DNA of 49,892 nucleotides from an uncultured Candidatus Poseidoniales archaeon (GCA_964342625.1 CAYFGC010000001.1:1-49892); one strand, 5' to 3'; shown: positions 5,979 through 49,892, counted from the stretch's first letter. Notes: generated by a model not told the origin, from the letters alone. Translations and numbers: made by a program.

Positions 5979-5990
5979 AGTGAGATTCCC

Positions 5991-6320: not shown

Positions 6321-6368
6321 GGGGTTCGGTCAAGTATTGTGAATTTGATATTTTTCTATAGGTCCAAC

Positions 6369-7943: not shown

Positions 7944-7951
7944 GTGTCACC

Positions 7952-8533: not shown

Positions 8534-8605
8534 CAGTCGATGCCAGCGTTAGAGTGCTATGAATCCACCGGGAATATTCTATGGTTGGTGTAGTATTTCC
8601 TATAT

Positions 8606-9055: not shown

Positions 9056-9129
9056 ATGTTCCCGAGCTAGAACCGGTCCTTGACCGTTCCCAAGACTCCC
9101 GGTGGGGTGAAAAGCCACCCTATTCTCGC

Positions 9130-10569: not shown

Positions 10570-10606
10570 TCAAATTCCCCGTACTAACTTACTCTATACC
10601 AAATCA

Positions 10607-11514: not shown

Positions 11515-11518
11515 TCAT

Positions 11519-11971: not shown

Positions 11972-12014
11972 ATGCCTTCGTTCCGCCAGTCATAGAAAAA
12001 CCAACGGGTCGCCT

Positions 12015-24098: not shown

Positions 24099-25430
24099 TC
24101 ACATGAAAATGAGTGCTGGGTTTTCCAGCATTCTCTTGAGGTGCTGAATTAGGGACGCTCCATCCGCCCCATCGACCACTCGGTGGTCAAAGGCGCTTGA
24201 AAGATTCATAATTCTCCTGATGACAACCTTCCCGTCCTTGACAACAGGCATCTCTCTTGCCTTGTGAACCCCAAGGATGGAAACCTCTGGATGATTGATG
24301 ATCGGGGTCGCCCCCAGGCCACCCTCTCGCCCTAGGCTTGTTATCGTGAAAGTGGAACCGGTGAGCTCATCTAGACTTGCACTACCATCTCTAGCAGATC
24401 CGGATACTCTTTGCATTTCTGATGCAGCGTTCCAGATGTCCATGGCCTCAACGTGCTTAACCACTGGGACATACAAACCGCGCTCAGTCTGAGTAGCAAT
24501 TCCTATGTTCACAGCTCCCTGCCTATTCACAACGCCGCCCTCATCATCGAAGTGCGCATTGCATTCGGGATGTTGGGGCATGATCTTAGCAAGAGCCAGC
24601 ATGATGAATGGAAGATATGTCAGCTTCGGTTGGGAATCGTCCTTTGTCGAGTTTAGGACCTGCCTCAAAGCCTCTAGCTCGGTAATATCGACCTCTTCGA
24701 AATATGAGAAGTGTGGTATTCTGCTCTTCGAGAGGCTCATTTGCTCAGAGATCTTTCTCCTTAGTCCTACCACCTTCACTGGAGTAACCTCGGTCCTCTT
24801 AACGGAGTATGCCATAGGCGCGGCACCTGAAACTGCCCCACCCGCTGCAATGAATGCGTCCAAATCAGCATGTCTGATCCTACCAGCCGGCCCCGATCCT
24901 CTTACGGTTGCAAGATCAACGTCATTCTCCCTTGCCCGCTTCCTAATCGCAGGACTAGCAAGGACTCGCCCGGTTGTTGTTTGGGATGGCGCCTTGGGTG
25001 CAGGAGCAGGTGCAGGAGCAGGAGCAGGAGCAGGTGCAGGAGCAGGTGCAGGAGCAGGTGCAGGAGCAGGAGCAGGAGCAGGTGCAGGAGCAGGAGTAGG
25101 AGCAGGAGTAGGAGCAGGTGCCGACACAGGTTCCGTTTTCGAGGGCTCGTCTTCGTCGCTCGATACTTCCTCACTTGCCGTTGCTTCTCCCTCGATTTCG
25201 ATTTCCAGAAGAGTTGTTCCAACTGCAATCATGTCTCCAACACCCCCACTTAGGGAATCTATTACCCCACTTTTAGGGGATGGAATTGTCACTGTTGCTT
25301 TGTCTGTCATCACATCCACAATAGGGTCGTCCTCAGAGACAGAATCTCCAACCGATACGTGCCATTGGACCACTTCTCCTTCAACTACCCCCTCTCCAAT
25401 ATCGGGCAACTTGAATACGAAATTTCCCAT
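24099..25430 (-). CDS. dihydrolipoamide acyltransferase (E2) of a 2-oxoacid dehydrogenase complex
   Basis: Lipoyl domain with VMTDKATVTIPSP, a long Ala/Pro linker, a peripheral subunit-binding domain (LASPAIRKRARENDVDL...GSGPAGRI) and a catalytic domain with DHRVVDGA. Confidence 0.93.
   Translation of the reverse strand: MGNFVFKLPDIGEGVVEGEVVQWHVSVGDSVSEDDPIVDVMTDKATVTIPSPKSGVIDSLSGGVGDMIAVGTTLLEIEIEGEATASEEVSSDEDEPSKTEPVSAPAPTPAPTPAPAPAPAPAPAPAPAPAPAPAPAPAPAPAPAPKAPSQTTTGRVLASPAIRKRARENDVDLATVRGSGPAGRIRHADLDAFIAAGGAVSGAAPMAYSVKRTEVTPVKVVGLRRKISEQMSLSKSRIPHFSYFEEVDITELEALRQVLNSTKDDSQPKLTYLPFIMLALAKIMPQHPECNAHFDDEGGVVNRQGAVNIGIATQTERGLYVPVVKHVEAMDIWNAASEMQRVSGSARDGSASLDELTGSTFTITSLGREGGLGATPIINHPEVSILGVHKAREMPVVKDGKVVIRRIMNLSSAFDHRVVDGADGASLIQHLKRMLENPALIFM
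24997..25121 (-). repeat. imperfect hexanucleotide tandem repeat (GCAGGA/GCAGGT on the + strand) encoding the (Ala-Pro)n E2 linker
   Basis: About 20 consecutive 6-nt units are directly visible. They translate on the minus strand to APAPTPAPTP(AP)n, about 42 residues. Confidence 0.9.
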
Positions 25431-25431
25431 C

Positions 25432-26442
25432 TCACTCCTCCTGTGTTTTCACTATCGCCGCTGCGATTCTAGATGGTCCGGGCATGTAATCCCATTCAGT
25501 AGTATGGGGGAATGGTGTGTCCCAACCAGTCACCCTCTCAATGGGTGCCTCAAGGTGGTAGAAGCACCTCTCCTGTATGGAAGCCGCCATTTCTGCACCG
25601 AATCCGCTGGTTTTCGGTGCTTCATGGACAATTACACACCTTCCTGTCTTCTCAACCGAACTTACGACTGACTCCCTGTCCCATGGAACAAGGGTCTGTA
25701 GGTCAATCAGGTCACACGACACTCCGCTGTCCCTAATTGCTTGCTCACAAACATGAACCATCGCACCCCATGAGATTACCGTGCAATCGCTTCCTTGCTG
25801 TGCAACTCTTGCCTCGCCAAGTGGGATTCTGTAGTGGCCCTCGGGAACTTCTGCCTCTGGATGATCAGACCATGTTGGCACGTTGTGAGGGTCCCCATAG
25901 AATGGTCCTCGGTAACACCTCTTCGGCTCGAAGAAAACCACAGGATCATTGCTCTCAATTGCGCTAATTAGCAGACCCTTCGCATTGTAAGGGGTTGAGC
26001 AGTAAACTACCTTTAGCCCAGGAGTGTGTGTGAACTGGGACTCTGGGGATTGCGAATGATGGTGACCTCCCCTAATGCCGCCCCCAGCTGGAGTCCGTAG
26101 TGTGACAGGAGACCAGAACTCACCTCCAGACCTGTGTCTAACCTTTGCCATCTCGTTCACAATCTGATCATAAGCCGGAAAGATGTAGTCAGCAAACTGA
26201 ATTTCCACTACAGGCCTGAGCCCATTCAATCCCATGCCAAAAGCAGTTGCAGCAATGCCTCCTTCCGAAAGTGGAGAATCGAAAACACGATGACTACCAT
26301 GTTTTTCTTGCAGTCCGTCGGTCGTTCTGAACACCCCTCCAAAGTAACCCACGTCTTCTCCGAATATGATTACATCCGGGTCACTATCTAGCATATTGTC
26401 GAGAGCGCTGTTCAATGATTGAATCATGTTCATGTTTGTCAT
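25432..26442 (-). CDS. 2-oxoacid dehydrogenase E1 component, beta subunit
   Basis: Transketolase-like pyrimidine-binding and C-terminal domains (VIIFGEDVGYFGGVFR, DSPLSEGGI, FADYIFPA). The start lies 2 nt after the E1-alpha stop. Confidence 0.93.
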   Translation of the reverse strand: MTNMNMIQSLNSALDNMLDSDPDVIIFGEDVGYFGGVFRTTDGLQEKHGSHRVFDSPLSEGGIAATAFGMGLNGLRPVVEIQFADYIFPAYDQIVNEMAKVRHRSGGEFWSPVTLRTPAGGGIRGGHHHSQSPESQFTHTPGLKVVYCSTPYNAKGLLISAIESNDPVVFFEPKRCYRGPFYGDPHNVPTWSDHPEAEVPEGHYRIPLGEARVAQQGSDCTVISWGAMVHVCEQAIRDSGVSCDLIDLQTLVPWDRESVVSSVEKTGRCVIVHEAPKTSGFGAEMAASIQERCFYHLEAPIERVTGWDTPFPHTTEWDYMPGPSRIAAAIVKTQEE

Positions 26443-30225: not shown

Positions 30226-33180
30226 ATGCGGCGCACAATCGTGCGAAATCGCAATCCCCACTCCTCAGTTCGTCAAACTACACTGGTCTCACTGTCGTTG
30301 GCATTATTGATGCTGATTCCCACTGGCTTCGATTTGGAATCATCAGAACTTCCCGATTACAAGGCCTTCAATGCCTCAGAAAGCGCCCCAGACGCCAACT
30401 TGTACAAGTTATACTTCGTACAGCCGGGTCAGAACCAGACTGCTGGAATGGACGGGCTGATCAGTACTCAGCCACCTGAAGGGAACGAGGACCAGGAAGT
30501 GGCAAGCGCCTTGGATGACGATGTCCAATTCATGACCATTTCACTGATGTCATCGATGGATTTCTTTGGGAGGAAGTTCCATGCCAATGACTCATACTAC
30601 ATTCCAGTTGAACTATTCCTAAAGTCAGAGGGGTCTCAGAATTCAAATGTAGATTGGACAGTTTCCATTATGACTTCAGAGAGAACCATCGGTTCCACAA
30701 CTTACTCCGGTTCCGTCTGCTCCTCATCATTCGGCAGTAGTTGCGACTTCGATCATGAGATTATCGACGTGGGTATAGGAAATTCCGAATCTTTCCAAGT
30801 AGGGAAGAACGAGCGATTGATCATCAGGGTCAGGGCTAGCATGTCTGGATGCGACAGTAGCGACAGCCCCTTCGGCGGGTCTAGCTGTACTGCAGATGTT
30901 GCATTCAACAACATCGACAACGAGCCAAACAAATTCTCCAAGATGGAGGCAAATGGAAATGCACTGATGAACAGCATCATTGTAGTTCAGAGAGAAGGTG
31001 CAAACATTGCCGAGGGTTCTGAGATAGACTGGTACCCGAATGACATTGTCGAGGACAGGGAGATGCAGTTTTCCATAGATGCGATCAGTGCATTTGGGCG
31101 GGCGGACATATCCAGGGTCGACATACTCATGAGGGGGCCGGATGGAAACTACGAGGTCGATGAAAGAATCACTGGAGACATGGAGGATATCGAGGATTCC
31201 AGCACAGGGATATTTGGCAAATTCCTTTTCACATACGATAGTGGACTTTCACCCGGGGAGTATACGGTATTTCTCAGGGTTCGAGATGTCGGTGGCAACG
31301 AAATAGAGATAGAGCATGAACCAATAGAGATGCACCAGTTTGGCGTTTCACTGAAGCATCGTTTCGACCGTTCAGTGGAGTACTTCGCTCCCGGGAAGGT
31401 CACTCCCGTCCCCATGGTTCTTATCCATAGGGGCGATTCCACCAAGTCGATGAACGTAGAACTGGAAGTTCTGACTAATCTGGGTAGCTCTTGGTTGGTT
31501 GAGTTCGATTCACCAGCAGGGTACGAGATGAGTTCCGGGGGTACGGTGATCAATCCTACTGTGACACTCACAGCCCCAGATGATCTGACTGGGATGCCGA
31601 AGAAGATTGAGATCCGAGCCGTAGCCGAGGCGGATGTGGATGGGGTTATTTCGGTCGTCCATCAGGATACCCTCGTACTGAACGTGGAGAAGATTGACGT
31701 CTATCAGCCCCCTGTAGTCTCAGTATGGTCCGAGGATCATAAAATACCAATAGCGAACTCATCCAGGGGGGAAGCTCTTGATTCGACGATCCCTAGATTC
31801 GCTGAATACGGGGAATTCAACCCGTTTATTTTAGAGATTTTCAATACTGGTTTCGATGCAGACACCTTCAGAATCGACATTCTGAAGAGATCAAAATCAA
31901 TCTTCCAATTCCACGATAACCTAACCGGCCAGCAGATCCTTCAATCCGAGGCCGACGGAACTTACCACACCCCTCTTCTGGAGAGGCACAGCACAAAGGT
32001 CCTGATTCTCGGGGTGAAGCCAAGCCTGGATAGGGAGGACGAGGATATCGGGGAGATTGAGATAGAAGTAATCAGTGGAGGCAATTCCTCAACCACAACT
32101 ACCGTTTCATTCACAATCCAGAGGACATATGGCATTAGGGGGGAGATCTCACAGGATTGTGACGGAACTCCCCTCGGACACATGCAGGTGTCACTCTGCG
32201 CACCCGGACAGGATAGGCCCGTATTGGACTTCAGAGCACGATTGACCAATAGTGAGACGGATTTGGAAGCAGCATCGTGGTGGCTGCTACAGAACCCCTC
32301 CACATTGAAGGAAAATACGGATAGAAACTCCGCATATGGGCAATGGGATTTCAGAATAACAAATTCGGACGGAGAGGCAGTCCCTAGGGTTTCCCTTGGT
32401 CCCGGGGACTTCACCGAGGTCTTCATCAGTGCAACTCTGACCAATCAGGTAGAGGTGGGGAACCACACCGTCTATCTGAGGATTGTCGAGGACATTGAAG
32501 AAGACGAACCAAGATATTTCGATCTCCCGATGACCTTTGAGATTGAAGCAGATCAACCCATGTTGGAGATAGTTCAGGTTTCCCAGAATACCAAACTTGC
32601 TCCTGGTAATGACTATTCTATCCAGATGAAGGTAAAGAATGAGGGCAACAGTCCGATGACTGTTCTTCTGGAAGCCGATGTAGACGAGAGTGGTTGGGAT
32701 GTGAGCATCGGTGGACTTTCTGGCTCCCCACTGATAGAAATTGATGCTTTTGACGAGGCAACCTTCACAGTCGAGGTTTCCGTTTCCAGTTCAGCAAACA
32801 ACGGAGACTCAATTCCAATAATGGTCACTGCTACCCCACTAGACACGGAGCAGAGCTTCTCAGAGTCTCTAACCGCCAAGTTCACCCTTACGGCAATCGT
32901 TGAGATTGGCTCATTCGTAGATATAATCGTCAACGAAATGTCCCACCCCAGACCAATAACCCTTGTTCTTGTTTTGGTCAGTGTTCTGTTGCTTTTTGCC
33001 GGGATTCAGAGCAGGCTCAATAGGAGGAGGTGGGCAGCTCAGATGAGTATGTTGGAGTCACTCTCTGAAGATGAGGTAACGGTCGAAGAAAACACCCCTG
33101 AGATTCCCGCACCTGTCACGGTGGAGGAAGAACACAGTGGCCCAGACAGGTACGACGATGAAGATGTCGAGCTATTGTAG
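30226..33180 (+). CDS. large surface protein with about 4 CARDB/NEW3-like beta-sandwich modules, C-terminal TM and acidic cytoplasmic tail (COG1470-like)
   Basis: N-terminal signal anchor (LVSLSLALLMLIP). Modules such as PGNDYSIQMKVKNEGNSPMTVLLEADVDESGWDVS. Many N-x-S/T sequons. C-terminal TM ITLVLVLVSVLLLFAGI followed by RLNRRRW and a 60-aa acidic tail. Confidence 0.72.
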   Translation: MRRTIVRNRNPHSSVRQTTLVSLSLALLMLIPTGFDLESSELPDYKAFNASESAPDANLYKLYFVQPGQNQTAGMDGLISTQPPEGNEDQEVASALDDDVQFMTISLMSSMDFFGRKFHANDSYYIPVELFLKSEGSQNSNVDWTVSIMTSERTIGSTTYSGSVCSSSFGSSCDFDHEIIDVGIGNSESFQVGKNERLIIRVRASMSGCDSSDSPFGGSSCTADVAFNNIDNEPNKFSKMEANGNALMNSIIVVQREGANIAEGSEIDWYPNDIVEDREMQFSIDAISAFGRADISRVDILMRGPDGNYEVDERITGDMEDIEDSSTGIFGKFLFTYDSGLSPGEYTVFLRVRDVGGNEIEIEHEPIEMHQFGVSLKHRFDRSVEYFAPGKVTPVPMVLIHRGDSTKSMNVELEVLTNLGSSWLVEFDSPAGYEMSSGGTVINPTVTLTAPDDLTGMPKKIEIRAVAEADVDGVISVVHQDTLVLNVEKIDVYQPPVVSVWSEDHKIPIANSSRGEALDSTIPRFAEYGEFNPFILEIFNTGFDADTFRIDILKRSKSIFQFHDNLTGQQILQSEADGTYHTPLLERHSTKVLILGVKPSLDREDEDIGEIEIEVISGGNSSTTTTVSFTIQRTYGIRGEISQDCDGTPLGHMQVSLCAPGQDRPVLDFRARLTNSETDLEAASWWLLQNPSTLKENTDRNSAYGQWDFRITNSDGEAVPRVSLGPGDFTEVFISATLTNQVEVGNHTVYLRIVEDIEEDEPRYFDLPMTFEIEADQPMLEIVQVSQNTKLAPGNDYSIQMKVKNEGNSPMTVLLEADVDESGWDVSIGGLSGSPLIEIDAFDEATFTVEVSVSSSANNGDSIPIMVTATPLDTEQSFSESLTAKFTLTAIVEIGSFVDIIVNEMSHPRPITLVLVLVSVLLLFAGIQSRLNRRRWAAQMSMLESLSEDEVTVEENTPEIPAPVTVEEEHSGPDRYDDEDVELL

Positions 33181-33255: not shown

Positions 33256-36200
33256 ATGCAGTTAGTAACTTCAAATTATGAAGAATCTAGTCCCATGGGC
33301 AAGAAGATGTCAGCCACATTTCTGACATTCTTGCTTCTCATGACCGGGATAGCCTCGATGCAGATTGCAGTGTTCGAAGTTTCTGCTACTGTGAACGACC
33401 AGGATGCAGACGGTCTCCCATATGGGATTGAGTTCTTGATCAACACCCAGCCTCAGGATTGGGACTCGGATAACGACGGCCTCCCCGATGGATGGGAATG
33501 GCAATATGGATTAGACCCCCTGTCGTCATTAGGTGAAAACGGCTCCACGGGGGACCCCGACTCTGACGGACTCACAAACCTGAACGAGTATCTTTTCGGA
33601 ATCCCTTCTGGTTGGGATGAGCCCTCTACTACAAACATCCTGGACAATGGTGTTTGGTGGAATGGCACTGTTCCTGTCTCAAACTGGGATGAGGAGAGTG
33701 CCATGCAAGTGATACAGGGCTCAGGTTCAGATGGCGCAGACGAGGATCCAGTAGGGAACATCTGCACTGATACGTTCGACAACGATCACGATGGAATGGT
33801 CGATTCTCATGATCCTGACTTCGATGGGGATGCCGATTGCAGCTCCAATGATGATGATGGGGACGGAATCGAAGACGAGGACCCCAATGGTTGGGATACC
33901 GATGGCGATGGAATGCCAGATGGGTGGGAGGTGGCAAATGGACTCGATCCAACTTCTAACTCAAACCAAGATGGGACCTTTGGAGACCCTGACTCAGATG
34001 GGCTTTCAAACATTTACGAGTACGTGAACCCAGCATGGGGGACTAGGAACGGAACGACATTTCCTCCTACGCAGTACTTCAGACCTGGGCCAATCAACAT
34101 GACGATCACTGAATCACCTTGTAATCCAGTACTTTCACTCGGCCCGGGTGGGTGTGGAATTTTTACTGCAGAGGTGGATGGAATCACCCAGACCGACCCT
34201 CAGAACAACGATACCGATGGCGATGGTCTGAATGACTCCTTTGAGGGACTAGTCTTGCTCACTGACCCAACCTCCCCAGATACTGACTCTGACGGAATTC
34301 TAGATGGAATAGAATTCAATGGGTCGTACGGGGATCCAGCACAGGGGTCTGACCCTAGGAGTAACAACACAGACGGGGACCATTTGGATGATGGTGACGA
34401 AGATCTGAATGGCAATGGCGTGATTGATCCCGGTGAGACTGATCCAACTAGGATCAACGACGAAGGCGATTTCGATGGCGACGGTCTACAAAATTGGGAG
34501 GAGAACAACTCCTGCACTCTATGGAACGTATCCGATTCAGATGGGGGTGGCATAAGTGACGGGGACGAAGGATTCCCCGGACAGACCGATCCGTGCACAT
34601 CCATTTTCGAACTAGTTTTCACAATCATTGACTGGGATGCAGATGCTGATACGCTAACCATCAACTCCACTGAAGGGATTAATCCCAACCCTGTTGATTG
34701 GAGGGGAAACGCCCCGATGGCTTACTTCGTTTCCCCCAATGGTACGCGGACACCGTTCAGCTATGCCTCCCTGGAGGAACCATCATTCCTGAAGGGAGTA
34801 GATACAGACCCCCCATTAGGCTCAACAATGATTTCGTTCATCAATGGCTCTTGGTGTTGGGATGCTTCTGCTAATGCAACCAATGACCCATGGTGTGATG
34901 ATGACTACAAGGACACGGACGGCGATGGTCTTGCAGACTGGGAGGAATTGACAGCAGCATGGGGTTATCTATCCGATCCGACCCTATACGATACCGATGG
35001 GGATGGCGTCAATGATCTTTCTGAAACTCTGAACCTAACAGACCCTAGAGAGCCCTGTGACAACCTGCTTGATACCGATGGGGATGGGTTGAACAACTAT
35101 TTCGAGAATACCACAGGGTGCTCAATGATTTTCGGTATTGGTGGCTTTGGCTTCGGGGGGAATTTCACGTCTGACGTTTGGTTCACTCTTTGGAACGTCG
35201 CAGATACGGACAATGGAGGAGTTGAGGATGGCCAGGAATATCTAGACGGGACAAACCCTCAGGACAATCCAGACGATGACATCAATCCTCTCGATACCGA
35301 TGGGGATGGTATCCCCGACCTAATAGAGCAGGAGTTAGGAACTGACTGGCTTGACCCCGATACTGACGGTGGAGGAATCCCAGATGGTGAAGAATGCCCC
35401 GAGGATTTCTGGGTTCTGGATTGTATAGGTTCCCCGGGCGATCCCTTCAATCCAATTGACGATATACAGGAGAACGCACTGATGTTCACTGCCACAAATA
35501 GCTCCGAAGGACTGGATCCAACCATCAAACACTACTGGAGATGGCATACCTATGACTTCTACACTGGGGTATCTTGGGGCGTGAATAGTACATTGGTAGG
35601 GAATACTCAGGTTATCCCAGAATTCTCTACAGAACAAGGTGTTGCAGACCAGTCTTTCTGGAATCACTCAGGCCCACTATCCTGGGAGATAATCTTCGAT
35701 GAAGCCGGATACATCGGACCCGGGCAAGAACTCATCCAGCCCTACAACGTTGTTAATTTCACAGCATGGGTGGATAACTCAGCCGGACTCAATTTCTCAA
35801 ACTACACTCGTGACATAATGGTTGACAGTGCCGTCATTGAGGCACTATACGTCAATGCTCCTGAGGTGATATTATCAGCGGCAATAAGAGACAATTCCAC
35901 AGCCTTCGCCGGTTCTGATTACGGTAAGGACCTACCTCAAGATTTCATTAACAACTCGGGGTTCGTCGCAAACCTTACCCAGGATGTTATTGATCAGTCA
36001 GGAGCGATATCAGCTTGGGACAAGGTCACTGCAATTCAGAATTTCATTGTTAACGGAAATGACACTATCTCTTTCCTAAGAAATCACTACGGCTCTGGAA
36101 GAGAAAGCGGCCTTGGAATAGATAGTGATGTTTCTCACTGGATCCTAAACTCTTCCAGGGAAGGAGACTGTGATGAGTTCACTTCTGTCTTCGTGACCAT

Positions 36201-39200
36201 GCTTAGGGTAGCGGGAATACCCGCAAGAAAGGTCACTGGATTCTCAGGCGGGTCGTGGGACGGCAAGGCATTCAATGTGTATGGCAAAGACTTCACTAGA
36301 TGGGCCGAGGTTCATTTGCAGACCAACCAGAACCAAGGAGAACTGGATCTTGGTTGGATACCCTTCGAGGCCTGCCCGCCGATGTCCGAAGTCAGGGTGA
36401 ATGTGCAGTCATGGGGGCCAACTTCCGTTCAGAGGAACACAACTACATCGGAAACAATCTGGGTCGAGGGGACATTGGAGTTCGTAGAAAACCAGACTCT
36501 GGTGGAGAACATCTCTCTCTCGATGTACCTTGTCGAACCCAATCAATCAGAACAGGTGCCGGGGAGTGCTGCCATCATAGAGCATCTGGTTTCCAATGTG
36601 TCAACTGATGAAAACGGGTCATTCAATCTAACCGGTCTCCCACAACAAATAATCCAACCAGGATTCGGCTCATTGGTAATACTGACAACTGAGAGGGGAT
36701 ATGTCGGAACTCAAGGGATTTCCATGCCGTGGCAGGTCAATATCACAGATAACGTATCTATGACTATCACCAGTCCAATCCCAGTAGGGCAGCCAATGCT
36801 GGGAATAGGAGTAAACTCATCAATTACAGGTCAACTTTCTTGGGCTAATTCACCTTTCTTGGATCCTTCAATCGTAGATGACCTGCAGGTTACTCTGAAC
36901 TACTCTTCAGATGTGGACGGCGAAGTTTCGATTGTTTCCGGCGTATCTGGAGGGGGTTACTACGAGTTCATCGTGCCAATCGACGAGTCAGAGCCCCTCG
37001 GCTTAATGGATGCCGCGATTTCATTCGATGGCTGGCATTTCGACGATCTGAACAACGCCACTACTCCATCTTACCACGCACTTCCAGGTTCCCTCCCCTT
37101 CATGCTCAACATCACGCTTTCCCCTGACCTAACCGTGGATATTCAGTCCCAGGGGCAGAATAACTCGATTTTGGAGATTGGCAGCAATATCTACCTTAAC
37201 GGAACGGTGCTCAGCAGAGGGCCATCGCCCACCCCGCTAAACGGGACATTGATTCTAGAAATGCGTAGGGCCGACCTCTCAGGCCCATTCCAAGAGCTGA
37301 CCACGTGGTACCTCAACAATTCCTCTTGGAGTTCCAATCCCGGTGAATTCTCCATCGTTTGGCCCTTCTCTGCCTCTGAAGTACCCCTCCCCGCAGGACC
37401 GGTCGATGTGCGCTTGCAGTTCGACTCCGATGACTTGAACTCGAATGATCAGGAGCAATTTGTCGATAACTACGGAATACGTAGCTTCGTCGTTTTCGAC
37501 TACGAACTCCCCTTCGCAATCAGAGGCAGGGAGTATGCTGTTGACGTATTCCTTGAGGATCACACCGGCTCATCATTTGCCCCATTCGATGGCGAATACT
37601 CCCTAATTTTCGATGGCGATACTGTTTGGAACGAAACAGACCCCGATGCAGGACGGGTTACTCCCACATTCACCCCTTCTTTCACGATGACTCCTGGAGA
37701 CTATGATTGGAACCTCAGTTATGGGGGTTCCACTTGGCTAAGCCCTAATTCCACATCGGGAGTTCTAAGGGTCAGAGGCATGGGCAATGCTTCTGCAATC
37801 CTCTCTAGTGATTGGTCTGTCAGGGGCTCAACAAATTGGGTCTCTGGATTTGCAAACGATATGGTGTTGCAGAGTCAAATAACTGGCAACAACACTTCTG
37901 TATTGGTGCAACTCGTCTTACCTTCGGAACTCCCTCCAACACCCGGTGGATTCCCAGCAGCCGGACCTACCTACAATATCGCAAATGGTTGGGTGGATGA
38001 AACCACTGGTGCATACAACCTATCATTTGAGATCCCACAGGGAGTCCCTTCGGGAGTTTACGAGCTCCATGTTACATTGAGTTTCTCTGTCAACCCACCA
38101 GAAGGAGGAAGCTACTACAATGCTGGAGATACAACAATTATCGACTTAGGCGTACAGACTGAGTTTGTTGTCGAGACCGAACCCCAATCTGCCATAGTTA
38201 CCGCAGGAGAAGAATTACTACTCCAATCGACCGTGACAGATGTCGAGGACCCAGATGTGACACTTTCTGGTGTTTCTCTGGATCTATACTTCGACTGGGG
38301 AGGGCCCTTGCAGACAATACTGCAATCTGGTACTACTAACTCACAAGGCGAGGTATCCTTCGACCCAATTGTTCCATCTACCGCACCGCCCGGTTTCTAC
38401 GACATTAGGGTGCACGCACCAGACGACCTTTCCGACACACTAACAACGACTGAAGCAGGAAGATGGCTCGGGAACGAAAGCTTCGTGAACCTAACAGTGC
38501 AAGTTGCTAGCTCTGTTGAGATAACCTCAATCCCGTCTCAGGTTACCGCACTGCAGTCATTCAACCTAGTGGGCAATGTGATGGATTCAGCAGATATCAA
38601 CAGGACAGTAGACGGGCCGGTTGGCATCAATGTGTTCTTCCTAGACGAGCCAGAAGAACTTCTGATCGATAATCAGACCACGAATATGACGGGTGCTTTC
38701 AACCTCACAGTCCCAACCGATGTTCTAGGAAACGGTGTACTCAGGGGTGAAAGGACCGTTGTCGTGAGCGTAGTCAACGGCTCGACACCATTCTATCTTA
38801 CAGGCAATGGAGATGCTTCAATACTAGTGGTGGGAATCTCCCAATTCGTCGATTCTAATCCTTTCATTAACACCATCGTTGACAGAGGCGAATCCATCAC
38901 CATCACAACTAGGCTAGTCGAGTTCAGCAACAACGAGAACCCGCTTTCTGGTTTCGAAGTCTTGGCTCGATTCCATGATACCTGGCTAGATTCCGGAGTA
39001 ACGGCCGCTGATGGCAGTGTAGCCTTCGAATTCGAAGTCCCCCATGATCATCCTCTTGGCCTGGTTAATGTCACCTTTGTCTTCAATGGGTCTGCTGACC
39101 TCCAACAAGCGGTGCAGGTCCTGAATACAATTACAGTGAGATCTTCGGCTACCATGGCAATAGATCAGATAACAGCGAACCCACTACCGGGGGAATTCTT

Positions 39201-42200
39201 CAACGTCACCGGATCTCTGACATCGAGTAACGGGTCGGGGCTATCTGACGTTTCTGGAAACCCATTGAATCCAACATTGACATTCTCTATTGACGGTGAA
39301 TCCAGTACATTCACCGTTTCCCAAGTCACATTCAACGTCGATGGAACTTGGTCAGCGGAACTAAGGCTCGATCTTTCTTTCCCACGAGGACCGCATGGAT
39401 TGGATGTTTCCTTCACCCCACAGGTGACCTATTTCACCTCTGCATCCGGGTTTGCCACCTTCGATAGCAGAGGTTTTTCCGTTCTAACTATAGAAAGCCC
39501 CGATGATCTCGACCCTGATAACAGGACAATCAGGGGCGAAACTTTCGATATATCCCTCTCCCTGATAGATAACGCAGGCGGACCTGTAACATCTGCGACT
39601 ATAGTGGTAAAAATTGACAATCTCACCGTATGGGGGGGCCTGTCCGATTCGAACGGCACCGCCTCAGCATCAATACTGGTTAGGCCCGATAGAGAACCCG
39701 GACCAATGGTAGTCACAGCAACATTCTCGGGAATCAATGGGACTATTGGCCTTGTAGGTGATTTCGCATGGACTAGAATAGTGGTTCTAGCTCCCACAGA
39801 ACTAGTCCTAAAGGAAGCATCCTCGCCATCCATAGCAGGTGGTTCGGTGACTCTGGTCGGCTCACTTCTGGATGAGAGGGCGCAGCTACTGCAGGATGGT
39901 GGCAACTCTAGTGGCGGACTGATTCACTTGTACATCGATGGTATCGACGTGGGTCCTTCCTACACTACTTTATCCAACGCTACTACGGGACAGTGGTCCA
40001 TAACATTCCTAATCCCTTCAGATATGGATTTCGGCTCTCACACGGCCCATGTAGAATTTCTTGGAGGATTTTCTTGGGTAGATCCAATGGGGCAAGGTGA
40101 CTCTCTAAATCCAGAATACTACTTGGGCTCCTCTGACTCAATGGTGTTCAATGTGACTCAACCGACTCAAGTAGTAATCTCTACCCCTCCGGCCGAGATC
40201 GACAGAACAGAGGTAGCAGTAGTAGAAGGATTGCTAACAGACGGCGTCGGTAGAGTAATCCCAAGCAGAGACCTTGTCATGCTGGTAAACGGACAGGAAA
40301 TAACCTCAATATCGGTGGATGGAAACGGGTCTTTCACAGGCTTTGTCCCCATTGCACCAGATATGGAGCTCGGACCAATGGTAATCGGGATAGAGTTCGC
40401 AGGGGAGGATTTCCTGCTACCATCAGAATCATCAGTTGTATTCACCGTCTTCTCACCAGTCTTCCTAACAATGGATCAAATAGGCCCTATCGCAGTGGGG
40501 GACGTTATGCTGATTTCTGGTTCTGCAAAGGACAACCTGGAGGATGGTTGGCTAGGGAGCCAAACAATTGAGGTGTTTGTCGATGGCGTACTAGTTGGAA
40601 TCACCAGCAGCCAGGAAAATGGCAATTGGTCCTTGGAGTGGACTATTCCAGATTCCATGGACGTTGGAAACCATTCTATTTCTGCAATTTCTCCAGCACA
40701 AGGATTCTACAGGCAGGGAATAATAGATTCAAATTTCACAGTGTCTTACCACACCACAATTTCACATCAGGTCGATCAGACGTATGTTACTAGGGGGGGG
40801 CATTGGAACTTCAGTGGACGACTTTTCGAATCTGACACCGGCTTCGAGCAGGGCCTTGAGGGCAGGGAGATTTCGATATTACTTGACGGGGCCCCTGTCG
40901 AATTGGTAGTCACGGAGGAGGGGGGATTATTCTCCTATGGCCATAGGGTACAATACGCATTGAGCCGAGGTTCTCACAACGTCTCATTCCAGTTCGGCGG
41001 CGAGTTCCTCTACCTCCCCACAGAGGCGGTTTCTCAGGTCTTTGCTCTTTCGGACATCGTAGTCGAGGTACAACCAATCACCAACACAATCATTCGTGGA
41101 GATGCATCCCCCTCCAGCTCAATAATGATCCAGGGACTCTTAAGGGAAGTAGGAGGCGAATCCGCAATCTTCTCCAACCTCTCCATGAGCCTAACATGGG
41201 GGGAATCGAACCTGCCAATCATCTCCGGCCCATGGGACAATCCGAGTACCATGAACTTCCAGATAAGAGCAAAGGCGCAGGAATTCATGCACCCCGGTGA
41301 GAACACCATCACCATTGTGGTCGACTCCGACCAGTCGAGGTTCCTGAATGGGGTTTCTAGGGAAATCGAGATTATGGTAATGATAGAGGTCGACTTCGTT
41401 TACTCAGAACTGGACCTCTCAAACGGCCAGAGGGTGATCAGGGGTACTGTAAACGCCACAGCTAGGGATACCGGGGCCCCACTGGAGGGGCTTTCTCTAA
41501 CTGCCAGTCTGGTGAATGGCAGCACCACTCACTTCTCGGTCTCAAAGCTGACTGGGGAGGATGGCGTCTTCCTGTACGAATTCAAGTCAATGTCCCCTCT
41601 GCCCGCCTTGTCAGAACAGTCCCTCCCTCCTGAGGGATGGGGACTTCTAAGCGTGATTATTGGCTCGGACTCCGATTTCATCGAACCGGGAAGCCTCGCT
41701 CTACTCCCATCCTCCGGTGTTTCCATTACTTACGAGAAACAAGAGGACGACTCCATATTCGGCAGCGCAGCCTTTGGAATCGGCGCTCTGGTGATTGCAG
41801 CAATCGCCATCGCCATCGCAGCAATGGCATTTAACACGAAGAGAAAATCAACAATTAGGGAACTCGCTAAGGTCCTGGGTCAGACCGTGGAGATGCTAGC
41901 ATCTGGCGATGAATACCGCAGAGCTATCTTCCTGTGCTACGAGAACATGTGTTCGGTCCTCATGCGTCGAGGATTCCTAAGAAGGAACTTCGAGACCGTT
42001 AGAGAGTTTGAGCATGCAATCAGGGAAGCCCTCCCAATCAGCGAGGCCTCATTGGTTTCTCTGGATCGAATTTTCGAGGAGGCTAGGTACTCGAGTCACG
42101 TTCTGGGGGACAGTCACAGGGACAACGCACAACTAGCACTCTCTTCAGTTATGCAGGAGATTGAGGCGATTCAAGACATACCAAAGAGGGATTTGCACAT

Positions 42201-42216
42201 CGAGATCGAGGAGTGA
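33256..42216 (+). CDS. giant (2,986 aa) surface protein: signal peptide, TSP3-type Ca-binding repeats, transglutaminase-like core, Ig-like module array, TM helix, DUF4129-like cytoplasmic domain
   Basis: Uninterrupted 8.96-kb ORF. The signal-like segment MSATFLTFLLLMTGIASMQIAV means the start may be ATG 33295. Domain evidence is listed in the sub-features below. Confidence 0.85.
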   Translation: MQLVTSNYEESSPMGKKMSATFLTFLLLMTGIASMQIAVFEVSATVNDQDADGLPYGIEFLINTQPQDWDSDNDGLPDGWEWQYGLDPLSSLGENGSTGDPDSDGLTNLNEYLFGIPSGWDEPSTTNILDNGVWWNGTVPVSNWDEESAMQVIQGSGSDGADEDPVGNICTDTFDNDHDGMVDSHDPDFDGDADCSSNDDDGDGIEDEDPNGWDTDGDGMPDGWEVANGLDPTSNSNQDGTFGDPDSDGLSNIYEYVNPAWGTRNGTTFPPTQYFRPGPINMTITESPCNPVLSLGPGGCGIFTAEVDGITQTDPQNNDTDGDGLNDSFEGLVLLTDPTSPDTDSDGILDGIEFNGSYGDPAQGSDPRSNNTDGDHLDDGDEDLNGNGVIDPGETDPTRINDEGDFDGDGLQNWEENNSCTLWNVSDSDGGGISDGDEGFPGQTDPCTSIFELVFTIIDWDADADTLTINSTEGINPNPVDWRGNAPMAYFVSPNGTRTPFSYASLEEPSFLKGVDTDPPLGSTMISFINGSWCWDASANATNDPWCDDDYKDTDGDGLADWEELTAAWGYLSDPTLYDTDGDGVNDLSETLNLTDPREPCDNLLDTDGDGLNNYFENTTGCSMIFGIGGFGFGGNFTSDVWFTLWNVADTDNGGVEDGQEYLDGTNPQDNPDDDINPLDTDGDGIPDLIEQELGTDWLDPDTDGGGIPDGEECPEDFWVLDCIGSPGDPFNPIDDIQENALMFTATNSSEGLDPTIKHYWRWHTYDFYTGVSWGVNSTLVGNTQVIPEFSTEQGVADQSFWNHSGPLSWEIIFDEAGYIGPGQELIQPYNVVNFTAWVDNSAGLNFSNYTRDIMVDSAVIEALYVNAPEVILSAAIRDNSTAFAGSDYGKDLPQDFINNSGFVANLTQDVIDQSGAISAWDKVTAIQNFIVNGNDTISFLRNHYGSGRESGLGIDSDVSHWILNSSREGDCDEFTSVFVTMLRVAGIPARKVTGFSGGSWDGKAFNVYGKDFTRWAEVHLQTNQNQGELDLGWIPFEACPPMSEVRVNVQSWGPTSVQRNTTTSETIWVEGTLEFVENQTLVENISLSMYLVEPNQSEQVPGSAAIIEHLVSNVSTDENGSFNLTGLPQQIIQPGFGSLVILTTERGYVGTQGISMPWQVNITDNVSMTITSPIPVGQPMLGIGVNSSITGQLSWANSPFLDPSIVDDLQVTLNYSSDVDGEVSIVSGVSGGGYYEFIVPIDESEPLGLMDAAISFDGWHFDDLNNATTPSYHALPGSLPFMLNITLSPDLTVDIQSQGQNNSILEIGSNIYLNGTVLSRGPSPTPLNGTLILEMRRADLSGPFQELTTWYLNNSSWSSNPGEFSIVWPFSASEVPLPAGPVDVRLQFDSDDLNSNDQEQFVDNYGIRSFVVFDYELPFAIRGREYAVDVFLEDHTGSSFAPFDGEYSLIFDGDTVWNETDPDAGRVTPTFTPSFTMTPGDYDWNLSYGGSTWLSPNSTSGVLRVRGMGNASAILSSDWSVRGSTNWVSGFANDMVLQSQITGNNTSVLVQLVLPSELPPTPGGFPAAGPTYNIANGWVDETTGAYNLSFEIPQGVPSGVYELHVTLSFSVNPPEGGSYYNAGDTTIIDLGVQTEFVVETEPQSAIVTAGEELLLQSTVTDVEDPDVTLSGVSLDLYFDWGGPLQTILQSGTTNSQGEVSFDPIVPSTAPPGFYDIRVHAPDDLSDTLTTTEAGRWLGNESFVNLTVQVASSVEITSIPSQVTALQSFNLVGNVMDSADINRTVDGPVGINVFFLDEPEELLIDNQTTNMTGAFNLTVPTDVLGNGVLRGERTVVVSVVNGSTPFYLTGNGDASILVVGISQFVDSNPFINTIVDRGESITITTRLVEFSNNENPLSGFEVLARFHDTWLDSGVTAADGSVAFEFEVPHDHPLGLVNVTFVFNGSADLQQAVQVLNTITVRSSATMAIDQITANPLPGEFFNVTGSLTSSNGSGLSDVSGNPLNPTLTFSIDGESSTFTVSQVTFNVDGTWSAELRLDLSFPRGPHGLDVSFTPQVTYFTSASGFATFDSRGFSVLTIESPDDLDPDNRTIRGETFDISLSLIDNAGGPVTSATIVVKIDNLTVWGGLSDSNGTASASILVRPDREPGPMVVTATFSGINGTIGLVGDFAWTRIVVLAPTELVLKEASSPSIAGGSVTLVGSLLDERAQLLQDGGNSSGGLIHLYIDGIDVGPSYTTLSNATTGQWSITFLIPSDMDFGSHTAHVEFLGGFSWVDPMGQGDSLNPEYYLGSSDSMVFNVTQPTQVVISTPPAEIDRTEVAVVEGLLTDGVGRVIPSRDLVMLVNGQEITSISVDGNGSFTGFVPIAPDMELGPMVIGIEFAGEDFLLPSESSVVFTVFSPVFLTMDQIGPIAVGDVMLISGSAKDNLEDGWLGSQTIEVFVDGVLVGITSSQENGNWSLEWTIPDSMDVGNHSISAISPAQGFYRQGIIDSNFTVSYHTTISHQVDQTYVTRGGHWNFSGRLFESDTGFEQGLEGREISILLDGAPVELVVTEEGGLFSYGHRVQYALSRGSHNVSFQFGGEFLYLPTEAVSQVFALSDIVVEVQPITNTIIRGDASPSSSIMIQGLLREVGGESAIFSNLSMSLTWGESNLPIISGPWDNPSTMNFQIRAKAQEFMHPGENTITIVVDSDQSRFLNGVSREIEIMVMIEVDFVYSELDLSNGQRVIRGTVNATARDTGAPLEGLSLTASLVNGSTTHFSVSKLTGEDGVFLYEFKSMSPLPALSEQSLPPEGWGLLSVIIGSDSDFIEPGSLALLPSSGVSITYEKQEDDSIFGSAAFGIGALVIAAIAIAIAAMAFNTKRKSTIRELAKVLGQTVEMLASGDEYRRAIFLCYENMCSVLMRRGFLRRNFETVREFEHAIREALPISEASLVSLDRIFEEARYSSHVLGDSHRDNAQLALSSVMQEIEAIQDIPKRDLHIEIEE
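33397..35400 (+). repeat. about 20 thrombospondin type 3-like / calcium-binding D-x-D-x-D-G-x-x-D-x-x-E repeats
   Basis: Examples are DSDNDGLPDGWE, DPDSDGLTNLNE, DTDGDGMPDGWE, DTDSDGILDGIE, DTDGDGLADWEE, DTDGDGVNDLSE, DTDGDGLNNYFE and DTDGDGIPDLIE. The DNA motif GATACCGATGGNGATGG recurs at about 34210, 34990, 35073 and 35293. Confidence 0.8.
36100..36380 (+). other. transglutaminase-like core domain within the giant ORF
   Basis: REGDCDEFTSVFVTMLRVAGIPARKVTGFSGG fits G-x-C-x-x-F-[AT]...R-x-x-G-I-P-A-R-x-V-x-G, followed by TRWAEV and GWIPFEA where H-x-W-x-E and W-x-x-x-D-P are expected. Confidence 0.65.
38390..41400 (+). repeat. array of at least 10 divergent ~105-aa Ig-like/beta-sandwich modules
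   Basis: A module end motif G-x-H/M-x-V-x-[VAF]-x-F-x-G...S...F-x-V recurs every ~310-330 nt. Examples are GLVNVTFVFNGSADL, GPHGLDVSFTPQV, GPMVVTATFSGING, GSHTAHVEFLGGF, GPMVIGIEFAGEDF, GNHSISAISPAQGF and GSHNVSFQFGGEF. Confidence 0.55.
41764..42150 (+). other. single TM helix plus DUF4129-like C-terminal domain of the giant ORF
   Basis: AAFGIGALVIAAIAIAIAAMAF, then the positive patch NTKRKST, then YRRAIFLCYENMCSVLMRRGF...TVREFEHAI...LDRIFEEARYSSH. This resembles the C-terminal domain found after the TM of TgpA-type transglutaminase-like proteins. Confidence 0.55.
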
Positions 42217-42217
42217 C

Positions 42218-42670
42218 TCAATCCATCTTGATAGAAATGAACTCCCCTTCCCAAATCGCCTTTGAAACACTCCTGCCCTCTGGTAGCCGGAATTTCCTGA
42301 TCAATCCCCCAAACCTCTCTGGAGAAATCACTCTGACAATCTGAGAGTCATTCTCAATCGTGGTGTCGATAGCAAACTTGCTCTTGTCGGCTGTTTTCAA
42401 GGGCAGTCTGATTTCAGATTCTGACCATTCTCCCCCGAACTCAGAGACAAACTCCCCCAAAGTGGAAACAGAATCGCTCATGACTCTAGACTCTATGTCG
42501 GAGACTACGGAGTTGTGAACCTCCATTACTTCTGATAGGTGGGGCAGCTCATTCAGGAATCCCATGTGCATCGATTCCGCATCAGTATCAAGACCAACTT
42601 TTAGATCCGCCAGACTACCAATTGACTCTATCTCGGCATCGGATTGGACATCAACCCTGGTCCACTCCAT
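42218..42670 (-). CDS. hypothetical acidic protein with weak Hsp20/alpha-crystallin-like C-terminus
   Basis: 150 aa. The C-terminal IENDSQIVRVISPERFGGLIRKFRLPEGRSVSKAIWEGEFISIKM loosely resembles the ACD end (F-x-R-x-x-x-LP-x-x-v...a...nG-x-L-x-I). It lies 40 nt downstream of XPD on the same strand. Confidence 0.45.
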   Translation of the reverse strand: MEWTRVDVQSDAEIESIGSLADLKVGLDTDAESMHMGFLNELPHLSEVMEVHNSVVSDIESRVMSDSVSTLGEFVSEFGGEWSESEIRLPLKTADKSKFAIDTTIENDSQIVRVISPERFGGLIRKFRLPEGRSVSKAIWEGEFISIKMD

Positions 42671-48329: not shown

Positions 48330-49892
48330 CTACTCATCTAGGTCCTCTTCTCTTTCATTGTAGATTGAGAGTAGGAAGTAACCCCCAACAGCAGCCGCTA
48401 TCACCAAGGCGATTAAGGCAGGAATAACTGTGGTATCTTGATCATCATCGACTATCGTCCAGTTCACGCTCTGACTGTTCATCTGCCCTCCTCCAAAAGC
48501 AAACTCGTCAACCAGTTGAGTGGGAGTTAGGATCCTGCACGAGATCGAATCCTGGCCTGAGACTGATACCCTCCAACTGAAAGAAATCGTCACCTGCTCC
48601 CCAGGACCTATGATTGAATTAGGGAAAGATGGCGAGATCTGCGCAGTAGTGTTGGTGCTGACATCCTCACAATTGAGTGCCAATGATGCCGCTGCAGAAC
48701 CAGAATTCAAGATTACGGCTTCAACATTCACTGAATCCCCGGCTGCGGCTTCGCTTAGTGCACCCTCTTCGCCGACAACAACCAAGCCAACCCAAGACAC
48801 CATCGGAGTTCCGCTTTCGACTACTACTTCCGAATCCCAGGAGAGTTGGAATTGGCCCCCTCCGTAATCTCCAATCCCCGACTGCTCAGGATTCCATGCA
48901 GTTCTGTAGTCAGTAATGGTCACAACTGCTTCTTCACTCCATATCGGACTCTCTTCCCATGTATTGTTTTCGGACCAGGCAATCTCGATCACCCTCTCCC
49001 TCCCCCCATCGATGAAAGAAACCCCCGCTTCGTTGCTGAAGTTTGAGTAACTCGGGAATCTGTGCATTCCCGAGATTTCGTATGTCACGAACATCGCATC
49101 GAATGATAGGCTCTGTCCGGTCAACCTCCTTTCCCATTTGTCAGTCAGTCCCCCTGAGCCTCCAACATCATCTCCCCAGTTTATCGATGAAAAAGCCCCT
49201 GCTCTGATATCATGATCATCAGTACTGTTTGAGAATCTCGTATCCCCACCTAGATGAATTTCTGCATCGTCGCTGGTCAGTAGGATTGGCCCAACCCTGT
49301 CAAGGTTCGTGCCATTAATTCGGAGGATTCCCGAGGTGGAAACCAGGCCTCCGAAGATGGAAGAAGAGTCTGAATGCATAGCTCCTTCAATTTCAATTGT
49401 GAAACCGGGCACCCCATTGACCATCATATTTCGATGTGAGAAATCTGCAGCATCAGCCCAGACCCTTTCTTGACCACCTCTTTCAACACTGATTTCGCTA
49501 AGTGAAATCGGGTGGCAAAGAGGGCCTGTCAAACCAACCCAAGTTTCGACAGGTCCGTTTCCGAGAGGGATAAAGTCCTCATCTCCACTCAGGTCCTTGG
49601 TTTCGTTTCCAAAATGCGCTACTACTCCGTCCAGCGTGAACCCTTGAATTGGCCGTACGTACATCCTGACATTCTGGTCTGAGGACGAAGAAGCCAATAC
49701 TGCAGATCTGTTACCTTCGTCACAATACCCGAATCCGGCCAATCCGGATGGGGGCTGGATCGAACTTAGCTCTGAATTTTCTATAGTCAACGAAGATGTT
49801 GGATCGACATAGATTTCGACTCCATTGCTGATATCTACTTGCGAATTTACGAAAGATAGTGAACCACCATTCACAACTCTGACATTCTGAGA
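48330..49892 (-). CDS. surface protein, 5'-truncated by the window end: beta-helix-like repeats, CARDB-like module, C-terminal TM and short acidic tail
   Basis: The frame stays open from 49874 to the window edge (…SQNVRVV-NGGSLSF). It has repetitive G/S/N-rich strands (VEIYVDPTSSLTIENSEL, ILRINGTNLDRVGPILLTSDDAEIHLGGDT), a CARDB-like AGDSVNVEAVILNSGSAAASLALNCED, then TM IPALIALVIAAAVGGYFLLSIY and NEREEDLDE. Confidence 0.7.
   Translation of the reverse strand, partial: SQNVRVVNGGSLSFVNSQVDISNGVEIYVDPTSSLTIENSELSSIQPPSGLAGFGYCDEGNRSAVLASSSSDQNVRMYVRPIQGFTLDGVVAHFGNETKDLSGDEDFIPLGNGPVETWVGLTGPLCHPISLSEISVERGGQERVWADAADFSHRNMMVNGVPGFTIEIEGAMHSDSSSIFGGLVSTSGILRINGTNLDRVGPILLTSDDAEIHLGGDTRFSNSTDDHDIRAGAFSSINWGDDVGGSGGLTDKWERRLTGQSLSFDAMFVTYEISGMHRFPSYSNFSNEAGVSFIDGGRERVIEIAWSENNTWEESPIWSEEAVVTITDYRTAWNPEQSGIGDYGGGQFQLSWDSEVVVESGTPMVSWVGLVVVGEEGALSEAAAGDSVNVEAVILNSGSAAASLALNCEDVSTNTTAQISPSFPNSIIGPGEQVTISFSWRVSVSGQDSISCRILTPTQLVDEFAFGGGQMNSQSVNWTIVDDDQDTTVIPALIALVIAAAVGGYFLLSIYNEREEDLDE

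Follow-up and report, generated by a model that had tools for sequence, protein, structure and literature searches.

A giant surface protein of the marine archaeal order Poseidoniales with a TgpA-like module and a presumably inactive transglutaminase-like core

Among the described proteins, TgpA (PA2873) from Pseudomonas aeruginosa offers the closest comparison for the gene presented here. Five transmembrane (TM) helices at its N-terminus (DUF3488) are followed by a periplasmic domain with transglutaminase activity in vitro and by a sixth TM helix; the protein is required for viability, and an action on the cell wall or envelope has been proposed (PMC3507681). Transglutaminase-like (TGL) domains are also part of the MoxR-vWA-TGL operon conserved in bacteria and archaea, and those lacking activity, such as the ones of Rad4 and Cyk3, act as peptide-binding modules (Zhang and Aravind, PMC3495828); bifidobacteria possess a fn3-MoxR-DUF58-tgm cluster (PMC8430577). 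As for the Marine Group II archaea (MGII), i.e. the order Poseidoniales, their genome papers name only 'thrombospondin genes' as adhesion traits (PMC6461757). The present study concerns a stretch of DNA of 49,892 nucleotides from an uncultured Candidatus Poseidoniales archaeon (GCA_964342625.1, CAYFGC010000001.1:1-49892)—hereafter the window—and, within it, the gene of a giant surface protein located at 33256..42216 on the plus strand. The MGII genome and transcriptome papers do not mention this gene, and the literature search yielded no paper tying MGII to a transglutaminase-like protein, or DUF4129 to a transglutaminase.

The giant gene, which is conserved across the order Poseidoniales, is a single uninterrupted open reading frame (ORF) starting with ATG, the stop codon being included in the above coordinates; it encodes 2,986 amino acids (aa), exactly as the original prediction, made from the sequence alone, had described it, and its GC content of ~0.50 equals that of the remainder of the window. 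A protein search with its product gave 1,522 matches at E ≤ 1e-10, the best 120 of which were examined. At least 120 homologues are full-length, covering 98-100% of the query at 40-93% identity and measuring 2,937-3,017 aa with one exception of 2,660 aa; across the 121 sequences of the family, the standard deviation (SD) of length is 31 aa. These homologues come from independent assemblies (ENA, JGI, NCBI, Logan and Tara) and carry, where they have been named at all, the names 'transglutaminase domain-containing protein' or 'hypothetical'. The scan of GTDB species genomes revealed the gene in ~65 of the 79 loci returned, covering both the Poseidoniaceae (MGIIa) and the Thalassarchaeaceae (MGIIb). 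The proteins from Poseidonia/Poseidoniaceae are 38-39% identical to the window protein, matched over residues ~16-2978, and its nearest relatives originate from the MGIIb metagenome-assembled genomes (MAGs) SP192 (94%) and MED-G35 (91%). That such an ORF could be an assembly artefact or a decaying pseudogene—a worry already expressed with the original prediction—has nothing in its favour but the unusual size, and its likelihood is practically negligible, given that a product of nearly constant length recurs in independently assembled data, that copies of the same length, 91-94% identical, are present in other MAGs (L008, L011), that the conservation is position-specific and that the order of genes around it is the same in both families. 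The prediction had also considered that its architecture might prove to be that of an already well-populated and characterised family; the family is indeed well populated, yet it has never been characterised, no paper describing it having been found.

The relationship to TgpA concerns above all the extracellular module at aa ~740-1045 (35473..36390, +), composed of an N-terminal beta domain and a transglutaminase-like core, as delimited by AlphaFold2 (AF2) and Foldseek. The Pfam family Transglut_core matches aa 922-1039 (36019..36372, +) with 48.7 bits at a cut-off of 23. The AF2 model of aa 716-1110, built from a 39-row alignment, reached a predicted local distance difference test score (pLDDT) of 87.7 and a predicted template modelling score (pTM) of 0.88, and its comparison with the PDB by Foldseek placed the TgpA periplasmic domain (6G49/6G4H) first, with an E-value of 1e-13 over 314 columns (TMt 0.60-0.65), followed by other transglutaminase-fold proteins. 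The only PDB relative found by sequence is also TgpA (6G49; phmmer, family profile E 1.4e-7). The kinship with TgpA suspected in the original prediction has thus been borne out at the level of both sequence and fold, and the profile and fold searches it had proposed returned Transglut_core and DUF4129 above their cut-offs together with the fold of TgpA. The preceding ~250 aa, taken originally for a region of unknown fold, turned out to be the N-terminal half of the TgpA ectodomain, so that the entire extracytoplasmic module shares its fold with the bacterial protein.

The active-site columns were read in the alignment of the 121 family members. Position 972 (36169..36171, +), which aligns to the TgpA cysteine at the canonical place of the nucleophile, is occupied by Cys in all of them, in accordance with the residue pointed out originally. 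The TgpA histidine aligns (phmmer) with Thr1014 (36295..36297, +), two residues ahead of W1016, and this canonical position of the catalytic His is never His in the family, being filled by Thr (67 sequences), Ala (21), Ser (16), Asp (8), Gly (4) and others including Asn and Leu. The position of the catalytic Asp, 1038, contains Glu (64), Asp (34), Gln (12), Asn (7) or Lys (2), and position 1040 (36373..36375, +), corresponding to the Thr of the D-P-T motif, is a family-specific Cys in 121 of 121. No invariant His was found in the family alignment within aa 716-1110; H1020 was considered as a substitute catalytic His and rejected, being present in just 94 of the 121 members and lying six residues further along the strand. 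Residues close to Cys972, such as D958, R984, R991, W1016 and E1018, are invariant, and between aa 724 and 2893 the window protein possesses only two cysteines, Cys972 and Cys1040. The same columns were inspected in 150 representatives from an exhaustive search: all proteins matching the whole module (2,701-3,088 aa, with identity down to 30%) have a non-His residue at 1014 and Cys1040; the TgpA-like relatives of 700-800 aa retain both Cys and His and have Thr or Ser at 1040 (the D-P-T motif).

From these columns we infer that the transglutaminase-like core of the giant has a dead active site and represents a family-specific pseudo-enzyme. The appearance of Cys1040 together with the loss of His suggests a structural role for Cys972, and the two cysteines may possibly form a disulfide across the former active site. 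Alternatively, the module could have remained catalytic, acting on surface proteins as a transglutaminase, cysteine protease or deamidase that would combine Cys972 with a non-canonical base; the invariance of Cys972 and of residues around it, the intact fold and the in vitro transglutaminase activity of the TgpA periplasmic domain (PMC3507681) are what one would expect in that case. This is nevertheless quite improbable, because neither the canonical position nor any other in the module offers a constant His, H1020 being both patchily present and displaced along the strand, because the acidic third residue has become Gln, Asn or Lys in 21 of the 121 sequences, and because the joint appearance of Cys1040 suggests that Cys972 is structural. 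Self-cross-linking, moreover, would find a poor substrate in an ectodomain with 0.7% Lys (21 of the 2,986 residues of the whole protein, in which Asp and Glu amount to 14.7%). The cross-linking machine imagined in the original prediction is, therefore, not supported, the catalytic His being replaced in every member and the Asp position being variable. In its intact fold and broken triad, the core resembles the inactive transglutaminase-like domains of Rad4/XPC, Cyk3 and CC2D2A (PMC3495828); those are, however, eukaryotic and intracellular, show no specific sequence relationship to the giant and differ from it, since the giant keeps the Cys and loses the His. A separate class of proteins (P0131, P0135, P0139, P0148, P0158 and others), mostly of 1,000-3,900 aa, contains two to four or more transglutaminase-like cores each; its first core or cores commonly have no Cys, and the later ones keep both Cys and His.

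At the opposite end, the protein has a single C-terminal TM helix (aa ~2838-2859; 41767..41832, +; Kyte-Doolittle maximum 2.57), hydrophobic segments being confined to this helix and to aa 20-44. Its sequence is poorly conserved yet hydrophobic in all members, and the NTKRKS directly following it fits a positive-inside tail. The cytoplasmic tail (aa 2860-2986; 41833..42213, +) is the best conserved part of the giant and contains the DUF4129 domain (aa 2894-2960, nt 41935-42135), recognised by Pfam with 28.3 bits at a cut-off of 24.8; searching the PDB by sequence with the tail gave only chance-level matches (SAC3, NLRP4F) at E > 0.3. An anchor of the PGF-CTERM/archaeosortase type was rejected, since the PGF strings of the giant are internal only. 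The layout recognised originally—a huge ectodomain, one TM helix and a small cytoplasmic DUF4129-like domain—is thus confirmed; it is, however, not a new topology, because the order of transglutaminase domain outside, TM helix and DUF4129 inside is that of the C-terminal half of TgpA (PMC3507681). The two proteins differ in that the giant, besides having no catalytic His and a variable Asp position, is about four times longer, contains no five-helix DUF3488 (no match to PF11992) and one signal-peptide-like segment instead, and has its module preceded by 675 aa of TSP3 repeats and separated from the TM helix by ~1,800 aa of immunoglobulin-like (Ig-like) modules. Unlike the TgpA-type operons, the window locus has no MoxR/DUF58 genes; a DUF4350 gene is likewise absent from it.

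The signal peptide noticed originally corresponds to a signal-peptide-like N-terminus (aa 1-44; 33256..33387, +) with a hydrophobic segment at aa 20-44. The N-termini of the family are the least conserved region of the protein and have in common a basic n-region, a stretch of 13-17 hydrophobic residues and A-x-A/S ahead of TDQDGDG; the predicted signal peptide is probably cut after V-S-A. The acidic, putatively calcium-binding region of TSP3-type repeats follows (aa 46-720; 33391..35415, +), identified by its DxDxDG motifs and by matches to TSP3_bac, CglD and MtsD. Between aa 48 and 705 there are 16 strict D-x-D-x-D-G motifs, 21 if D/N is allowed, and 11-12 full 12-residue motifs, so that the 'about 20' repeats counted originally are a fair estimate. 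Against the whole giant, Pfam TSP3_bac (PF18884) scored 25.7 bits (cut-off 25) with four stretches. The NCBIfam matches to CglD (95.8 bits, cut-off 400) and MtsD (37.8 bits, cut-off 800) are partial and restricted to the repeats, and both scores lie far under the curated cut-offs, which does not support full-length membership of either equivalog.

The TSP3 region, with a net charge of about -147 (that of the Ig-like array being about -160), is the best conserved extracellular part of the giant. Its motif Asp residues are invariant across the 121 sequences, and most of the region shows a column identity of 75-82%, compared with 42-68% in aa 451-650. Six pairs of cysteines are conserved, i.e. 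170/195, 289/300, 420/447, 534/547, 601/622 and 714/723. The repeats would be expected to bind Ca2+, judging from their motifs. Tandem DxDxDGxxDxxE motifs with interspersed conserved Cys pairs are shared with the 'wire' of thrombospondins and COMP and with the TSP3_bac proteins CglD and MtsD; the repeats are, however, all that is shared, the giant having neither a lectin-like C-terminal domain nor a lipoprotein signal. Foldseek returned nothing at E ≤ 0.001 for the AF2 model of aa 40-760, in which the sole well-predicted, strand-rich part is a small beta-barrel insert (aa ~452-529; 34609..34842, +; pLDDT 76-92). This insert is less conserved than its flanks and has no PDB match at E ≤ 0.001, the best ones (E ~0.009-0.05) being small beta-barrels of ATPase subunits and L35Ae.

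Between the TgpA-like module and the TM helix there is an array of ~15 divergent modules of a putative Ig-like/beta-sandwich type (aa 1046-2830; 36391..41745, +), free of Cys, rich in sequons and fixed in length, in which the ~1,700 aa of sequon-rich beta-sandwich-like modules of the original prediction can be recognised. The self-comparison of the family profile by hhalign revealed a period of ~105-115 aa over aa ~1105-2785, i.e. ~15 modules, with E-values down to 1e-51; the modules are related to each other only at the profile level. In Pfam, searched with the whole protein and with ten 250-aa windows, MG2, Invasin_D3, Big_7 and SdrD_B all remained under their cut-offs, so that none of the Pfam Ig families is assigned to the window protein itself; homologues of the giant carry precomputed matches to Big_3_5, CarboxypepD_reg, MG2 and Big_1, and a paralogue with above-threshold Ig-type matches aligns to the array. 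A reading as an alpha-2-macroglobulin-like protein was rejected, MG2 scoring 23.3 bits at a cut-off of 32.8, with no CxEQ thioester motif and no Cys within aa 1041-2893. The giant contains 80 N-x-S/T sequons compared with 29.2 ± 4.7 in 500 shuffled sequences (maximum 42), i.e. ~10 SD above, of which 52 lie in the array, where 17.6 are expected; 26 sequon columns persist in 80% or more of the 121 homologues, and there is no sequon in the cytoplasmic tail. The ectodomain is thus a good candidate for N-glycosylation.

The distribution of constraint along the molecule is uneven. At the deepest split of the family, identity is 63% in the TSP3 region and 67-71% in the DUF4129 core (aa 2881-2950), as opposed to 36-38% in the TgpA-like module, 33% in the Ig-like array and 10-15% in the TM helix, and sequences 40% identical exhibit no indel longer than 9 aa outside the N-terminus. 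With the two ends being the most constrained and the length of the stalk being kept, the ends appear to be the functional ones and the stalk a spacer of fixed length. This is unlike the giant adhesins with variable repeats (Big/RTX), which have near-identical repeats varying in copy number, whereas the modules of the giant are related at the profile level, with the above-mentioned small SD of length and short indels.

Directly upstream of the giant gene, ending 75 nt before it, lies the gene for a type-I membrane protein of 984 aa (30226..33180, +), referred to here as the partner. A hydrophobic segment is present at its N-terminus and a TM helix at its C-terminus, its domains are of the Ig-like/NEW3 type and its acidic tail is short; NPCBM_assoc matches 14 and FixG_C 9 of 32 members. 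The partner occupies the same position in 64 loci from both Poseidoniales families, with a length of 954-1,001 aa, and is orthologous across the order (e.g. 31% identity and E 7e-119 to L001); judging from the spacing, the two genes may be co-transcribed. The gene order at the loci L001-L003 (with homologues 40% and 46% identical) and at the species loci is LipA (-), SDR (+), the 954-1,001 aa protein (+), the giant (+), a small ORF (-) and XPD (-), and it is found around the giant in both families. The recurrent neighbours are the partner (64 loci), XPD (56) and LipA (45), and the synteny comparison suggested with the original prediction thus gave a consistent picture across the order. The absence of MoxR/DUF58 genes nearby, stated already there, holds for every window ORF of at least 150 aa, none of which matched these families; across the Poseidoniales loci, where MoxR was not queried, no DUF58 or DUF4350 was found within 6-10 kb of the giant. 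Two contigs assigned to bacterial MAGs, NYYT01000038.1 ('Pedosphaera sp.', L059) and CAXRJJ010000032.1 ('Yoonia sp.', L066), contain the full Poseidoniales locus—the partner, the giant and XPD—and most likely represent mis-binned archaeal DNA.

The original prediction did not recognise the fusion of the transglutaminase core to a calcium-repeat stalk and an Ig-like array; the same building blocks are, however, present elsewhere in Archaea. Three Thermoplasmatota outside MGII encode giants of 2,539-2,573 aa (L079, 5779-13500; L080, 4678-12297; L081, 5830-13449), consisting of an N-terminal TM segment, TSP3 repeats, Transglut_core, Ig-like modules, a TM helix and a DUF4129 tail, the last sharing the FEEARYS motif with the MGII giant. 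These proteins (P0469, P0471) resemble the MGII giant also in topology, in linkage to XPD, which is found nearby, and in the inactive transglutaminase core. They differ from it by the position of the core inside the TSP3 region (aa ~420-535), by ~40 DxDxDG motifs, by their length of ~2,540-2,570 aa, by the absence of an upstream partner orthologue and by the genes for DUF4350, DUF58 and a protein of ~283 aa that follow downstream. Their core keeps the His and has Ala or Ser at the Cys position (GNALDF or GSSLDF); with lesions so different from the loss of His in MGII, catalysis would have been lost independently, and the fact that the outgroup giants are inactive too indicates that its loss has been repeatedly tolerated in such proteins. 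Halobacteriales possess proteins of ~2,166 aa with TSP3 repeats, Ig-like modules and DUF4129.

Concerning the DUF58 family, the search yielded one 90%-identity cluster labelled Candidatus Poseidoniales, located on contig L083. The operon there (1752-12093) encodes a TSP3 protein, a 1,976-aa protein with the Ig-like array, TM helix and DUF4129, a DUF4350 protein, MoxR, a DUF58 protein and a protein of 281 aa. The 1,976-aa paralogue has an array homologous to that of the giant, its TM helix and tail are 37% identical to those of the giant, with the motif LRRHFETVREF (LRRxFETVREF being shared), and its family, like that of the giant, is conserved in length (1,958-2,005 aa); it differs in having no transglutaminase core or TSP3 repeats in the same polypeptide and in being embedded in a MoxR operon. 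One member, 50% identical, is labelled Marine Group III. A single labelled cluster does not demonstrate MoxR/DUF58 across the whole order. Giant surface proteins with a DUF4129 tail thus form a broad class in Archaea that has so far gone undescribed and is normally tied to DUF4350/MoxR/DUF58; the MGII giant is a member of it without this linkage. A further archaeal contig (L084, 7748-11284) has a minimal operon for a 287-aa DUF4129 protein, a 157-aa protein, MoxR and a DUF58 protein, by which DUF4129 appears to be a constant partner of the MoxR system independent of the giant ectodomains.

We propose, with a probability of about 0.5, that the giant is a non-enzymatic scaffold or receptor of the MGII envelope, descended from TgpA-type transglutaminase/DUF4129 membrane proteins. 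Having been exported by the Sec system and freed of its signal peptide, it would stand on the membrane by its C-terminal helix, and the Ig-like modules would act as a fixed-length spacer, reaching a few tens of nm if extended and presenting the Ca2+-loaded, disulfide-stapled TSP3 region and the dead transglutaminase fold away from the membrane. This fold, its former active site possibly closed by the Cys972-Cys1040 disulfide, would serve for binding peptides or proteins, as inactive TGL domains do elsewhere. The tip would bind a presumed conserved ligand of the cell's own envelope or form canopy contacts, probably with the co-encoded partner, and the DUF4129 tail would dock the assembly to a presumed conserved component at the cytoplasmic face, which in the relatives is encoded as the DUF4350/MoxR/DUF58 set. 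Several points weigh against this proposal. The invariance of Cys972 could equally mean a retained chemistry with an unconventional partner, and a ubiquitous external ligand would be an equally possible target of the strongly conserved tip. The AF2 model of the TSP3 region (aa 40-760) is of low confidence (pLDDT 61, pTM 0.38), and the Ig-type nature of the array, judged from profiles, is the weakest-verified part of the architecture. The attribution of MoxR/DUF58/DUF4350 to MGII comes from a single MAG label, and with the paralogue family including Marine Group III, a link in trans is uncertain. Finally, MGII is uncultured.

Two further explanations accept a non-enzymatic protein and differ in what it would contact. 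The giant could act as an adhesin, its Ca2+-bound TSP3 tip and pseudo-transglutaminase binding particles, phytoplankton, polymers or other external surfaces at the end of the long Ig-like stalk, with the anchor and tail doing nothing but retaining it. TSP3 repeats and Ig-like arrays are characteristic of adhesins, NCBIfam matches the giant best with CglD and MtsD, both of them adhesion proteins, the 'thrombospondin genes' are counted among the adhesion traits of MGII (PMC6461757), and the ectodomain is very large and acidic. Adhesins, however, usually vary in the number of repeats and diverge fastest at the tip, whereas here the length is fixed and the tip is the best conserved of all extracellular parts; the gene, furthermore, is found in both families in a housekeeping neighbourhood, and a passive anchor does not explain a tail as conserved as the tip. 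Such an adhesin, named already in the original prediction, is thus conceivable but on the unlikely side; the transmembrane coupling suggested there may likewise occur. Another candidate role is that of an S-layer-like protein, in which the giant would be the chief canopy component of MGII and would build a lattice together with the co-encoded partner. The glycoprotein signature, the Ig-type modules, the C-terminal TM anchor, the acidic putative Ca2+-binding regions, the conservation across the order at a fixed length and the pairing with a second membrane glycoprotein-like protein agree with this view. The enrichment in sequons, the C-terminal TM helix and the ~15 beta-sandwich-type modules would fit an archaeal S-layer glycoprotein, but the giant is far larger than the known S-layer proteins, exhibits no similarity to any solved one, has no C-terminal PGF motif and counts among its relatives members of MoxR/DUF58 systems rather than of S-layer loci, which makes this role improbable.

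Rather speculatively and with considerable doubt, the giant and its partner could be the principal outer canopy of MGII cells: a glycosylated, Ca2+-dependent layer held at a fixed distance by the 15-module stalk, the pseudo-transglutaminase/TSP3 tip of which would capture proteinaceous material or make lattice contacts, and the DUF4129 tail would couple the layer across the membrane to a MoxR/DUF58-type chaperone system. If true, MGII would possess an archaeal envelope of a new kind, with its origin in a TgpA-like enzyme.

A surface protein of ~3,000 residues, fixed in length, present across the order and always paired with a membrane protein, is a strong candidate for a major envelope or contact structure, and it could be used to mark the lineage and be targeted with antibodies, in cell sorting or in cryo-electron tomography. 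It would also be a clear example from nature of how a TgpA-type transglutaminase becomes a pseudo-enzyme, a change made in two archaeal lineages independently and by different lesions. Through it, the DUF4129/DUF4350/DUF58/MoxR envelope systems, which are poorly understood, become connected with giant surface proteins in Archaea. It should be pointed out that the fusion itself recurs in Archaea; the surprise is rather an order-wide, length-invariant and, as it appears, catalytically dead giant in abundant uncultured archaea of the ocean.

Immediately downstream of the giant, at 42218-42670 (-), there is an ORF of 150 aa without a Pfam match, found by tblastn at the same position in 17 loci, all within relatives at least 50% identical; its counterpart at L001 is only 20% identical (E 0.001), and the C-terminus of the window ORF resembles, by eye only, a small heat-shock protein. 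Four other window ORFs of 150-514 aa, at 4-651 (+), 11519-11971 (-), 13306-13887 (-) and 48330-49874 (-), have no Pfam match at E ≤ 0.001, and an ORF of 388 aa at 24505-25671 (+), antisense to the E2/E1-beta genes, is probably spurious. The window is otherwise archaeal housekeeping DNA, with genes for aTrm56, aRF1, class-I LysRS, CPSase, a 2-oxoacid dehydrogenase operon, LipA and XPD.

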